From contig JAAFIG010000017.1 of the NCBI GenBank assembly GCA_013298595.1, positions 1,327 to 65,326 of the forward strand: a DNA stretch of 64,000 nt. The letters are read 5' to 3'. Source of the stretch: Deinococcales bacterium. GTDB taxonomy: Bacteria; Deinococcota; Deinococci; Deinococcales; JAAFIG01. Shown one piece after another: positions 36,429 through 40,300 of this stretch. The first letter of the stretch is position 1. The number at the start of each line of letters is the position of its first letter. Below the pieces are notes generated by a model. That model ran no database searches. It saw only the letters and a list, made by a program, of their open reading frames with translations, and was not told the DNA's origin. The position numbers and the translations under genes are program-made.

Positions 36429-36437
36429 TGCTATACT
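36429..36437 (+). promoter_or_regulatory. Extended -10 element (TGcTATACT), 8 nt upstream of an ATG
   Basis: tgctatact, then cgagccac (8 nt), then ATG at 36446, with no Shine-Dalgarno. The same -10 / 8 nt / ATG layout recurs at 37288-37304 before mcrB. Confidence 0.3.
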
Positions 36438-36445
36438 CGAGCCAC

Positions 36446-36529
36446 ATGACCGAACCTGCATTGACTGCACCGCAATTTGTTCTAAGCACTCACGGCATCA
36501 AAGCCCTTGCCGCCACTTGGTGTGCTTAA
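36446..36529 (+). pseudogene. Diverged duplicate of the mcrB-like 5' end (27-codon mini-ORF)
   Basis: Encodes MTEPALTAPQFVLSTHGIKALAATWCA*, versus MTEPALAAPQFVLSAYGIQAHAEL at the true start (37302). 57 of 67 nt are identical in my hand alignment of 36446-36512 against 37302-37368. The stop lies 2 nt before the peptidase ATG. Confidence 0.7.
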
Positions 36530-36531
36530 AG

Positions 36532-37095
36532 ATGCAATCGCCTTTTGCTCAAAGCCTCATCAGCCAATTGAATGAACACGAAACACTGTATTTTTTGACA
36601 ATACTAGAAGAAATAGGAGTAGCACATTTACTTGCACAGCACCCATTGAAAAGCCTCGAATTTTTAGAGACTGTTGAATTTGAGGGTAGGTCAGTCAATG
36701 GTATTTACAGTTTTTTTGAGCAAAGTGTACAGGTTGCCGTTCATCGGGATGAGTCTGAATTTCATGCTGTGTATCGTAAACAAGAATTTTGGAGCATCAG
36801 CAGTTTGGCTACTACTTCTAAGGATGCCATTGCTCGTACTTTAGCGCATGAAATTGGGCATCATCTTCATCATATTTTGGAGTTATTGCACCCGCAGTCT
36901 TTTCGCGCAACGATTCTTTATCCCCGAAGCAATGGTTTAAGCCAGTATGCCTTGCAGAGCAATCGAGAATACTTTGCGGAGTGCTTTGCCGCTTTTGTTT
37001 ATCAAAGAGTCGAGCTTTTCATGGATGATGGCTTTGGCTATGCTATGATGAATCAAAGCCTGAAAGCCTTGGGCTTAGTGGTCAGGGAACGATAA
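36532..37095 (+). CDS. Uncharacterised zincin-like metallopeptidase (HExxH)
   Basis: ORF 36517..37095, ATG at 36532. HExxH in TLAHEIGHHLHH. The downstream NREYFAECFAAFVY recalls the third-ligand/EFFA segment of MtfA (M90)-like zincins. No CTCGAG inside the gene. Confidence 0.55.
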   Translation: MQSPFAQSLISQLNEHETLYFLTILEEIGVAHLLAQHPLKSLEFLETVEFEGRSVNGIYSFFEQSVQVAVHRDESEFHAVYRKQEFWSISSLATTSKDAIARTLAHEIGHHLHHILELLHPQSFRATILYPRSNGLSQYALQSNREYFAECFAAFVYQRVELFMDDGFGYAMMNQSLKALGLVVRER

Positions 37096-37292
37096 TGCTA
37101 ACACTCGAGAAACTGGTTGTTCAAGAAATGTCTTCTTCAGACTTGGCTAATTATGTCACCTTAGCAAGGTTAGATGGTTCTTTAACCCGAGATGAATTTT
37201 GGCAAATTATCACAGAACTCAAGTCTCGTGGGACACATCCAGAAGTCTTGGCGGGTGTTTCAGGAGAAGTTCATCCCAGTTGGCGTTTATAA
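37095..37292 (+). CDS. Small hypothetical protein (65 aa) coupled to the metallopeptidase
   Basis: ATG overlaps the peptidase stop (TAATG). No recognisable motif. Its 3' end contains a TATAAT box for the next gene. Confidence 0.4.
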   Translation: MLTLEKLVVQEMSSSDLANYVTLARLDGSLTRDEFWQIITELKSRGTHPEVLAGVSGEVHPSWRL

Positions 37293-37293
37293 T
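37288..37293 (+). promoter_or_regulatory. -10 box (TATAAT), 8 nt upstream of the mcrB-like ATG
   Basis: tataat, then cttagttc (8 nt), then ATG at 37302, with no Shine-Dalgarno. This spacing suits a leaderless transcript and mirrors 36432-36448. Confidence 0.3.
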
Positions 37294-37301
37294 CTTAGTT
37301 C

Positions 37302-40300
37302 ATGACCGAACCTGCATTGGCTGCGCCGCAATTTGTTTTAAGTGCTTATGGCATCCAAGCCCATGCTGAATTGCGCTCGGATGCTTTTGTGGTGCTGGCT
37401 GGCAGTGGCGCTCGGCTCGAGACAGTGCCATCTTTTGCAGTTCATATGAAAGGGTACGCTGCGTTGCGCCAGAAGTTCCTCGATTCTGGTCAACTTGTAC
37501 TTGATGGTGAGCAATTGCTTTTTGTAGCTGATACAGTTTTTTCTAAGCCAAGTGCAGCAGCGTCCGTTATCATGGCAAGAGGGGCAAATGGGCATAAGGA
37601 TTGGAAGGTTCTGGGGCAAGAAAAGCAGAGCTTTGGCGAGTGGTTCAAAATCAATAAAACGACGTTGACCCCACAAGCGCTGGCGCAACTCGAGGCTTCA
37701 GAATTTACTTGGATTGCGTTTTTCAAAGAATTAGCCGTGCGTCTGCTCGAGTTTGAATCTAAGCAACCTGATTTGGTTCAGCTTCTGAAAAATGCGGCGG
37801 TCAACATCCAAGATGATGATGGTCTGCCACTGCTTGTCCTTGACCCATTTTCGTTTTTTTCTTTGGTTCTCAAGCACAAAAGCCAAGCCAAAATTTTCGA
37901 GGTTTGCTCGAGTCTGAAATCCCAATTGAATCTGCTCTCCGATGTTCCCACAGATTTGTTTGGGGTACCGAGCAGCAACGCTCAAAATGCGTGGTTCTTT
38001 GCTTTCCGCGCTCGGCGCTCGGATGCTGATTTGCCCACGCTTTGGGCGTTGGCACGCCAAGCAGTGGCGGGTGTTCTCGAGCCGCAGACTTTTGCACAGG
38101 CTTTGCAGATTCGCATGGTTGGACTTGCCAAGCTCACCCAAGGGCTTTTTTGGTTGAACCCAGAAGTGTTCTTGCCGCTTGACGCGGTGGTTTTGGGCTA
38201 CCTCGAGCCTTTAGGAATTAGAAACGGAGCGAAAACCCAATCCCTGACTGAGTACCAACAGATTCTCGAGTTTGCCAGAACCATTGAACCAGATTTTGCT
38301 TTGCTTTCCTATCAGGCTTGGTTGAGTTTGCAGCCGATTGGTGCGGCGACACTCGAGGATGGCGCTTTTCCGTGGACGGCTTTCATCGCCGATGTTGCCC
38401 TGCATCAAACTGATTTTGCCAAAGGTAACATGATTTTGGATCGCAAATACGCGGCGTTGTTGCTGCAATTACTTCAGTCCGAAACTTGGCAGCAACTTGT
38501 GCCAGTCAAAGCCCCGTACAGCAATAAAGAACAATTGGCAGCTCAAGTTGATCTGGGCAAGACTGCTTTTTTCTCGGCTCGAGCCTTGCTATTTGCCGAT
38601 CACAATGGTTTCGACCAAGCCCCGTTCTTGGCGGGCTTAACCTTTGAGATGCAGTTACAAGCTAACCCACAGCTCGAGTCTTTGCTTGTCCCACTACCGC
38701 ATGACTTAACGCCTTCGCTGTTGGTAGGCAAACAGGCTGTGCTTTTAGAAGCCACTCAAGAAGCACAACTCAAACTTGTACTCGAGAATCCACAAGCACC
38801 GTTGCGAATCAGGCTGAACTTAACACCAGCAGATTTAGAGGATCAATTCTTTGCCGATAAACTCGAGGCGGCTCTAAATTATTTGGATCAGATTCAATTC
38901 TTGGATGTCAGTGCCACACCACCCTTGGAGGAAGCCATCATGCCGCAATTCGAGCCACTGCCTAACGTACCACTGAATCAGATTTTTTATGGCGCTCCGG
39001 GTACAGGGAAAACATTTAAGGTGGTCAGCGAAGCGCTTCGTATCCTCGAGCCAAGTATTTTAACTGAATCTCGAGAAGTGCAGAAAAAACGCTTCGATCA
39101 GCTACTGGCAGCAGGTCAAATCAGTTTCGTGACTTTTCATCAGTCATTTGGTTACGAGGATTTTGTCGAAGGTATCAAGCCCGTGCTGCAAAACGGTCAG
39201 ATCAGTTATGAACTCGAGGATGGCTTGTTGATGCAAGCCGTCAAAGCTGCCAATGGTGTCGTGGCAGCACCAACTCTTAGCCCAATCAAGCAAGATGGTC
39301 AAGTCTGGCGAATGTACATTGATGGCACTGTACCAGTAAGCCAATTGCGTGACCGTTGCTTGGAACGCGGCGAGATTCGCATGGGCAGTTGGGGCAAAAT
39401 CCCTTTTGATTTGAACACTGCTCCCGATGACCAACTCGAGTATCAACAAGGCTTGTTTCGGGATGCCATGCGAATGGGTGATTTGGTGTTGCTTGCCACA
39501 GGTCAAGACCAAATTTCTGCCATTGGTGTGGTTACATCCGAATACCGTTTTGATGTATCTGACCCGCTTTTTAGTCATGATTTTGCCCATGCGCGTTCGG
39601 TGCGATGGTTGGGTAAAAATCTGGCTTGGAAACCTTCAGTTTTGGTGGGTAAAGTCTTTGCTCGACCAACTTTGCAACGGGTGTTGGATACCAAACCAGA
39701 ACAATTCCTGAGCCTTCTCGAGCCAAAAACCGCACCCGTACAATCGTCTGGAATGCGTCCGCATGTGCTGATTATTGATGAAATCAACCGTGGCAATGTG
39801 GCAAAAATCTTTGGTGAACTGATTACCCTGCTCGAGCCTAATAAACGCCTTGGAGCAGCCGAAGGCTTGCAAGTCAAATTGCCTCTGAGTAAGCGTTTGT
39901 TTGGTGTACCACAAAGCCTGTACATCATTGCGACCATGAACACGGCTGACCGCAGCCTGATGCAACTCGATGCGGCTTTGCGCCGACGCTTTGTATTTAC
40001 GGCTGTAGACCCGCAACCAGAGTTGCTGCCTATTCTCACGCTCGAGGATGGCACAGCGCTTGATTTGCCTAAATTCTTACATGCCATCAACACCCGAATC
40101 CAGCGTTTGCTCAGCCGCGATCAACTGATTGGTCATGCCTATTTCTTTGATTTTGAACCAAGCCTAAATAGTCTGTCTGACTTGTTACAAAAACGAATTC
40201 TGCCTCTGCTCGAGGAGTATTTCTTTGAGGATTGGGGCTTGATTCGTCAAGTGCTTGCCGATGACCAAAAACCCCAAGCGCAGCAGTTTATTCGCACTTT

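Follow-up and report, generated by a model that had tools for sequence, protein, structure and literature searches.

Why does an intact mcrB gene stand behind a second, truncated copy of its own first codons? The question is raised by a 64,000-nucleotide (nt) stretch of contig JAAFIG010000017.1 from a Deinococcales bacterium (assembly GCA_013298595.1), called the window here, in which a two-gene cassette encoding an HExxH peptidase and a small partner protein lies between two similar 67-nt sequences. The initial annotation described these sequences as a diverged duplicate of the mcrB promoter and 5' end. The repeat is probably a recombination scar in a variable slot, formed when the cassette was placed 67 nt into mcrB by insertion or allele replacement with promoter capture. 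The features at the site are listed with their window coordinates, open reading frames (ORFs) and protein lengths in amino acids (aa); L172 and L173 are related metagenome contigs.

36381..36445, + strand: native mcrB promoter region, with the extended -10 TGcTATACT at 36429-36437, homologous to L172 9994-10057 and to L173
36446..36529, + strand: 27-codon stub ORF, whose first 67 nt (22 codons) are the displaced mcrB 5' end
36513..37300, + strand: inserted DNA, 788 nt, in which 4 junction bases precede the peptidase and partner genes and 8 bases follow them, up to CATG
36517..37095, + strand: HExxH zinc peptidase, 187 aa from ATG 36532, with a predicted M34-like fold (anthrax lethal factor/PPEP)
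37095..37292, + strand: 65-aa helical partner, whose start overlaps the peptidase stop (TAATG) and whose TAA stop lies inside TATAAT
37288..37301, + strand: TATAAT (37288-37293, overlapping the TAA stop of the 65-aa ORF) and an 8-nt spacer, a candidate leaderless promoter
37302..40388, + strand: McrB-like GTPase, 1028 aa, with Pfam DUF4357 (an N-terminal, DUF4357-type domain) and AAA_5 (1.9e-14)
40385..41608, + strand: McrC, 407 aa, Pfam McrBC (3e-91), overlapping the mcrB stop by 4 nt

McrBC systems pair an McrB AAA+ GTPase with a downstream McrC that has a PD-(D/E)xK nuclease. The last two genes have this order, an McrB AAA+ GTPase and then a protein matching Pfam McrBC.

The two stretches, 36446-36512 and 37302-37368, each open with ATG and are identical at 57 of 67 positions without gaps, at an offset of 856 nt; the second is the first 67 nt of the full-length mcrB. 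The identity includes the C before each ATG, so the 19-nt sequence CATGACCGAACCTGCATTG is exact in both copies, and all 10 differences fall in the 48 nt that follow it. No third match to the 19-mer was present in the window at up to three mismatches, leaving two repeat copies only. Local alignment of the pair gave a score of 87, compared with a mean of 18.9 and a maximum of 32 in 500 shuffles and a maximum of 36 for ~500 random pairs of 400-nt window segments. The 67-nt repeat first aligned by hand is real.

Comparison with mcrBC relatives distinguished the ancestral copy from the added one. L172 was found through its protein P0013 and L173 through P0023 (protein search, then contig look-up). 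L172 has its helicase, SNF2, methyltransferase, mcrB and mcrC genes in the same order as the window, at ~83% nucleotide identity; the window McrB is 86% identical to P0013 in the protein search, and starting at the ATG the mcrB DNA matches L172 at 84% of positions. Both contigs are without the peptidase/partner cassette and have the native promoter directly before mcrB. By blastn, window 36381-36512 aligned to L172 9994-10124, which is mcrB upstream DNA plus the first 67 nt, and window 37301-41607 aligned separately to L172 10057-14342. The DNA upstream of 37301 had no blastn alignment to L172, and L173 gave the same pattern. The native region shared with the relatives comprises the stub and the ~65-150 bases that precede it. 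Because promoter homology to L172 and L173 is present before the stub only, the stub copy is the one that has kept the ancestral place after the native promoter. The core of this promoter, TGACTTGCTATACTCGAGC(C/T)AC-ATG, is kept in L172, in L173 and upstream of the window stub and is absent upstream of the window's full-length mcrB, where nothing beyond the register of the -10 hexamer resembles the native promoter. The duplicated part is mcrB coding nt 1-67 plus one base, and the promoter was not duplicated. The initial annotation was wrong in speaking of a duplicate promoter: the duplication begins at -1 from the ATG, and the second TATAAT is non-homologous DNA over the cassette stop codon. 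Its proposal that the new genes are preceded by a promoter and a leader stub agrees with both relatives, in which the promoter carried by the stub copy is the ancestral mcrB promoter.

The edges of the insert were located from alignments on both sides. Homology of the stub ends at 36511/36512, and DNA alignment of the cassette with its copies at other loci starts at TTG 36517, the position of their ATG start codon, which places the left joint within 36512-36516. On the right, homology in the alignment of cassette ends stops at the small gene's stop codon, and only 8 nt separate this codon from the CATG of mcrB. As read from these alignments, the insert is promoterless and bounded almost exactly by ORF start and stop codons. 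The last 5 codons and the stop of the stub derive from the junction and the cassette 5' end; the stop (36527-36529) lies 2 nt ahead of the peptidase ATG 36532, as described in the initial annotation. A frameshifted fusion of stub and peptidase was considered and rejected, the two frames being different and the homologues starting at the position of 36517. An assembly chimera of two strain variants, promoter-mcrB and cassette-mcrB, would suit a sequence taken from a draft assembly contig, and close strains co-occur in such samples. The left joint at 36512/36513 has no shared k-mer, however, the sole exact repeat is 19 nt, the copies are 15% apart and the frames are tidy at both joints (stub stop beside the peptidase start, mcrB intact), which makes a chimera extremely unlikely.

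The lower GC content and the single CTCGAG reported for the cassette were also found. The cassette has 41.9% GC compared with 46.9% for the window, and 1 CTCGAG where 4.7 are expected (P ~0.05). Seven copies of the cassette family together contain 15 CTCGAG compared with ~32 expected, and the cassette is AT-richer than its host contig at 6 of the 7 loci compared. Low GC and CTCGAG depletion are real properties of the cassette family within the same lineage and are not proof of foreign origin.

The origin of the second copy was examined in the differences between the window copies and the relatives over the 67 nt.

Stub versus full copy: 10 differences
Stub versus L173: 9 differences
Full copy versus L173: 8 differences
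Stub versus L172: 17 differences
Full copy versus L172: 13 differences

At the clustered sites 42, 46 and 48 the stub has the L173 allele and the full copy has the L172 allele. L172 and L173 are 96-100% identical to each other in the mcrB 3' part and mcrC and only 61-66% identical in mcrB nt 150-1200, and this contrast between the 3' part and the 5' third indicates that mcrB 5' modules recombine. The McrB N-terminal region (the mcrB 5' third, 37450-38500 in the window, and its L172 and L173 counterparts) is by this nucleotide comparison modular. The mcrB of L173 has a frameshift and two internal deletions. The L172/L173 comparison, the mosaic mcrB 5' regions and the itinerant gene pair described below uphold the earlier proposal that recombination placed the cassette in the mcrB 5' end.

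In the proposed mechanism, the promoterless pair would have lodged 67 nt into mcrB, leaving the native extended -10 and 22 codons upstream as the stub, and the mcrB frame would have been restored by a second, ~15% diverged copy of the 67 nt. The likeliest route would be replacement of resident DNA by an incoming segment carrying the cassette and another mcrB allele, with an illegitimate joint at 36512/36513 and a homologous crossover further downstream. Juxtaposition of two alleles would explain the divergence without great age. By the alternative route, template switching would have made the insertion in situ and duplicated the 67 nt, followed by stub decay and mcrB allelic exchange. Several observations pull away from the recombination-scar reading. 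Sites 17-18 unite the two window copies, sites 19 and 66 place the stub with L172, and the 67-nt signal is thin, the stub, full copy and L173 being about equidistant (8-10 differences). The arrangement was found in one assembly only and no 'cassette-mcrB' donor was found, so either route may have been taken. When a genome collection was scanned with McrB, the matches were all distant, in Deinococcus and proteobacteria (best segment <=64% identical), and a metagenome scan with McrB returned no close relative.

The DNA between the methyltransferase and mcrBC differs in content from one relative to the next. Its features in the window are as follows.

32172..35897, + strand: DrmMI/Eco57I-type N6-adenine methyltransferase (type IIG-like), with Pfam Eco57I, N6_Mtase and MmeI_Mtase and PADLOC DrmMI (2e-76)
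35982..36299, + strand: two terminator-like hairpins with T-runs (35982-35998 and 36265-36289), separating the methyltransferase from the mcrB promoter
36148..36199, + strand: hairpin resembling abiF RNA (36148-36183), then ATGACGACTTAG; together the orphan 5' stub of an Abi_2 gene

The methyltransferase is the last gene of a DISARM-like block (24297-35897) and forms the left border of the slot. The block encodes a DEAD/Helicase_C/MZB helicase of 1694 aa, a DrmD/DpdE-like SNF2 protein and the methyltransferase; its upstream genes are DruE/DrmA-like with MZB and DrmD/DpdE-like. The 3' end of the methyltransferase gene (35544-35893) is 82% identical to L172 and L173. A central block of ~1 kilobase (kb; 34484-35544) has no nucleotide match in L172, with flanks 82-83% identical, and looks like a swapped target-recognition region by this pattern. 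A 548-nt intergenic region separates the methyltransferase gene from the stub, and L173 shares the second terminator-like hairpin within it (3097-3122). A 108-column blastn match at 83% identity pairs window 36097-36199 with L173 1387-1493 and ends in the first Abi_2 codons, and the abiF-like hairpin of L173 (1437-1472) directly precedes an intact Abi_2 gene at 1483-2373. The window keeps the abiF-like RNA motif, whose Rfam score of 24.7 bits falls short of the gathering score (37), and four initial Abi_2 codons, followed by a stop. By this alignment, a lost abortive-infection gene has left a second orphan 5' stub in this intergenic region. The slot of L173 contains the abiF-RNA-like hairpin, the Abi_2 gene and a remnant of a 355-aa gene. 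The slot of L172 (8268-9980) contains three genes of 355, 125 and 69 aa; phage-type genes also cycle through the slot, since the 355-aa and 125-aa genes match phrog_30544 and phrog_31579 (PHROGs of unknown function).

Homology-facilitated illegitimate recombination, a process of naturally transformable bacteria, makes one homologous and one illegitimate joint. Defence-island turnover and this process resemble the present locus in the variable slot, in contents that differ between relatives and in the mosaic flanking gene. The window also has a left joint without homology and a truncated copy of the resident gene left behind, as in homology-facilitated illegitimate recombination. It differs in that no donor was found and in that the insert, bounded by ORF ends, stops 9 nt short of an intact mcrB. 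The precision of the ORF-bounded insert suggests selection for a working operon, or another mechanism such as template switching.

Direct repeats around a discrete insert are also what a transposon would leave if a long target-site duplication had later diverged. Target-site duplications are 2-15 bp, are identical when formed and come with a transposase and/or terminal inverted repeats. The 67 nt here far exceed known duplications of this kind, and the insert has neither transposase nor terminal inverted repeats and is bounded by start and stop codons. The three clustered stub sites match the L173 allele, and no transposase-associated copy of the cassette was present among the other loci fetched. 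Such an insertion is scarcely credible, and the initial annotation was right to set aside a simple target-site duplication for a 67-nt repeat with 15% divergence, no transposase and a codon-bounded insert. Integron cassettes are likewise promoterless and ORF-bounded and sit directly downstream of a resident promoter. They are defined by a 3' attC site and a nearby IntI integrase with attI, and resident promoters serve their promoterless ORFs. The window cassette differs from them in lying inside a coding region and in being flanked by a 67-nt partial gene duplication. No integrase-like ORF was present among the proteins scanned in 24-42 kb, and no attI/attC-like site was found. An integron-type event was rejected for the missing integrase and for the space of only 8 nt between the cassette stop and CATG.

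The cassette was then compared across its other locations. Only 10 relatives of the peptidase were found at E <= 1e-3 in a word-indexed search of 5.8 billion proteins. A 65-72-aa gene follows the peptidase gene at 11 of 11 other loci, with stop and start overlapping or abutting; six of these loci were aligned. Within the same uncultured, CTCGAG-rich Deinococcales lineage the pair was seen in at least six further contexts, including the following.

L081, L082 and L087: cassette between an Eco57I-type methyltransferase and an SNF2/PLD helicase
L086: cassette before a ClpB-like gene
L088: cassette after glutamine synthetase
L091: cassette beside a PA14 protein
L174-L177: cassette between a ferredoxin-like gene and an unrelated gene

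No mcrB-like stub or sequence and no shared repeat flanks the cassette in L081, L086, L087, L088 or L091; the L174 flanks were read, outside the scored flanking-repeat comparison. A perfect 15-nt direct repeat, TTAGTCTAACATCAG, brackets the cassette in L087 (3052-3066 and 3889-3903) and is unrelated in sequence to the mcrB repeat. Its second copy edges a toxin-antitoxin module of an 86-aa protein and a PIN protein, and this module is absent from the otherwise equivalent L081. L087 also has an 18-nt palindrome, ATCAGACTCGAGTCTGAT, centred on CTCGAG upstream of the peptidase gene.

These loci bear on a Campbell-type or site-specific integration of a small circle carrying an mcrB 5' mimic, with the crossover in the 19-nt core CATGACCGAACCTGCATTG. 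Integrative elements rebuild the end of their target gene as an att core plus a diverged arm, and the core-arm-cassette-core-arm layout, with 19 identical nt and then 10 differences in 48, is as expected from such an event. The repeat around the L087 cassette also favors it. No integrase or recombinase is present in or beside the cassette, however, which encodes only the peptidase and the 65-aa protein. The first 16 nt of the repeat are also present in cassette-free L173, so the core is probably conserved sequence and its identity mostly plain conservation. None of the six other compared loci has an mcrB-like stub, and flanking repeats at them are at chance level save in L087, where the sequence is unrelated. 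Integration of a circle is quite unlikely.

A different HExxH peptidase occurs in Deinococcus piscis (L001 8899-9699), a Peptidase_M78/IrrE-like protein with a weak CapP match. Its gene overlaps the stop of a DrmMI-like methyltransferase gene on one side and is flanked by a DUF4357-McrB gene on the other. A peptidase at the methyltransferase/McrB position may be a recurring theme.

Promoter capture would place the cassette under the signals that precede the stub. TATACT at 36432-36437 is preceded by TGc and stands 8 nt before ATG 36446, the same distance as between TATAAT and ATG 37302, and no GGAG-like or Shine-Dalgarno-like motif is present before either ATG; these were the positions given in the initial annotation. 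A perfect TATAAT has a chance of ~3.5e-4 per site, and in L174 an analogous TAGACT-N6-ATG likewise lies over the stop codon of the partner gene. A consensus promoter scan reported neither hexamer because neither has a -35 element. TAnnnT spacing was surveyed in 115 ORFs from the window and seven related loci and peaked 6 nt before the start (11 of 115 genes, other spacings having ~2 each), and wherever TAnnnT lay at 5-9 nt the gene had no Shine-Dalgarno-like motif. In Deinococcus ~60% of mRNAs are leaderless with a TAnnnT -10 next to the start codon, and leaderless leader peptides are known (PMC4007540); the -10 motif adjacent to ORFs was validated experimentally (PMC12340547). Because the lineage is Deinococcales and TAnnnT peaks just before start codons, leaderless use of both ATG-proximal starts is plausible from the sequence.

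In the corresponding model of expression, the native promoter would start a leaderless transcript at, or 1-2 nt before, ATG 36446. Ribosomes would translate the 27-codon stub and may re-initiate at the peptidase start (TTG 36517 or ATG 36532), which is possible because the stub stop overlaps or abuts this start. The transcript would run on into mcrBC because no terminator intervenes; none of the terminator-like sites lies within 36446-37600. Read-through, re-initiation 9 nt past the small gene's stop or a new leaderless start at TATAAT could each reach mcrB. Two points count against leaderless capture: the lineage prefers 6 nt between the -10 and ATG and the spacing here is 8, so the transcript may carry a 1-2-nt leader, and the stub could be untranslated and TATAAT inactive. 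The arrangement resembles Deinococcus leaderless leader peptides in having TAnnnT a few nt before ATG, no Shine-Dalgarno and a short 5' ORF before the main gene. It is unlike them in that the 'leader' is a remnant of another gene and in the 8-nt spacing, compared with the local mode of 6.

The same evidence bears on the idea that both copies are selected as a regulatory device, with a shared 5' mRNA or peptide element or an operator co-regulating the cassette and mcrBC and with the stub as a true leader peptide. The common 8-nt -10 register, the identical first 19 nt and the tight coupling of stub stop to peptidase start fit such a device, as do the leaderless leader peptides of Deinococcus (PMC4007540). 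A device is unlikely, however, given that the arrangement occurs in one genome only, that later stub codons carry non-synonymous changes and end in junction-derived residues, and that the stub is 22 residues of a ~105-residue DUF4357-type domain (PADLOC PDC-S14 matches McrB 8-115).

The peptidase was assigned by structure and motif. In an alignment of 11 homologues the HExGHH..H and EYFAE motifs are invariant, including H106, E107, H110 and E146-E150. The AlphaFold2 model has a predicted local distance difference test (pLDDT) score of 94 and a predicted template modeling (TM) score of 0.92, and Foldseek matched it to anthrax lethal factor and PPEP-1 with TM 0.5-0.6 and a probability of 1.0. 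By sequence, the Pfam ATLF match reached 21 bits, below the cut-off of 27.4 for membership, and a PDB profile search gave E ~0.2. According to the model, the protein has the HExxH and downstream Glu of M34 peptidases on a predicted lethal-factor-like fold. It shares with lethal factor and PPEP-1/Zmp1 the fold and the HExxH...E(Y/F)FAE pattern and differs in its marginal sequence similarity, in the lack of a noted N-terminal extension and in its gene context. Searches of the peptidase and partner against PADLOC, NCBIfam and PHROGs returned no useful family.

A closer sequence relation was found in phages. Over residues 11-182 the peptidase and the C-terminal domain of a phage MuF protein share 31% identity (E 8e-18). 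The viral contigs L178 (4281-5749) and L179 (4176-5746) encode Phage_Mu_F head proteins that end in the peptidase-homologous domain; these genes adjoin Mu-type portal genes, and an overlapping 71-76-aa ORF follows each. An exhaustive profile search returned 580 cluster representatives with the domain at E <= 1e-3, many of them 410-640 aa long with the domain C-terminal and some of them giants of 4-5 thousand residues. The window protein of 187 aa is the domain only and has no N-terminal Phage_Mu_F fusion. The 65-aa partner has its own GGGA-type motif before the gene. Its single-sequence model is helical with a pLDDT of 73, too weak for a fold search, and profile comparison gave no similarity to the small ORFs downstream of the phage MuF genes. 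MuF polymorphic toxins of temperate phages carry metallopeptidase domains in 20% of cases, and immunity genes follow them (PMC5576092). Because MuF toxins often carry metallopeptidase domains and trailing immunity genes, a toxin-immunity-like pair is the best functional guess for peptidase and partner, by analogy. The likeness consists of homology over the whole length of the window peptidase to the Phage_Mu_F C-terminal domain and of the small gene directly after it, whereas the window domain stands alone, with no part for MuF delivery, and is encoded on the chromosome within a defence island.

The host lineage is marked by CTCGAG, which occurs 385 times in the 64 kb compared with 13.6 expected (28-fold), in non-coding DNA as well as in every codon phase (226/81/66). 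Palindromic hexamers other than CTCGAG reach 47 copies at most, and several that are rich in GC do not occur at all. The related contigs (L081-L091 and L172-L177) contain 4.6-6.3 CTCGAG per kb, and loci from Deinococcus species ~0. The cassette-bearing contigs among them have 45-47% GC like the window, except for L174-L177 (52-54%). LepA of L081 is 75-77% identical to that of named Deinococcus species and closer to metagenome sequences. The LepA identities and the shared CTCGAG abundance identify the lineage as uncultured low-GC Deinococcales, and CTCGAG is its HIP1-like hyper-abundant palindrome. A literature search on CTCGAG over-representation returned nothing relevant.

The locus is a new instance of a known process, defence-island cassette turnover with partial gene duplication. 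Its joints are unusually clean and its setting is that of a leaderless promoter, making it an ordinary but tidy example and not a new type of element; current views are not overturned. A bolder and very unlikely proposal is that the pair is a host-domesticated, phage-injected MuF-type metallopeptidase and its inhibitor, wired into the mcrBC transcript, with the inhibitor shielding the island or the peptidase acting as an abortive-infection effector. If this were true, the small protein would protect the island from phage peptidases ejected with the DNA, or alternatively the peptidase would be released when McrBC or DISARM is attacked. Start-to-stop capture behind a leaderless promoter, possibly RNA- or template-switch-mediated, would then be a recurrent plug-in route for promoterless cassettes into Deinococcales defence operons. 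As a recombination scar, the locus offers a natural example of how defence islands are rebuilt: a module that lands a few codons into a resident gene takes over its putative leaderless promoter, and the interrupted mcrB persists because its 5' end is present a second time. It points to a hot slot between DISARM-like genes and mcrBC and to modular swapping of the McrB N terminus. It also points to a free-standing relative of phage MuF metallopeptidase toxin domains, rare and restricted to this lineage, that is always accompanied by a small partner.

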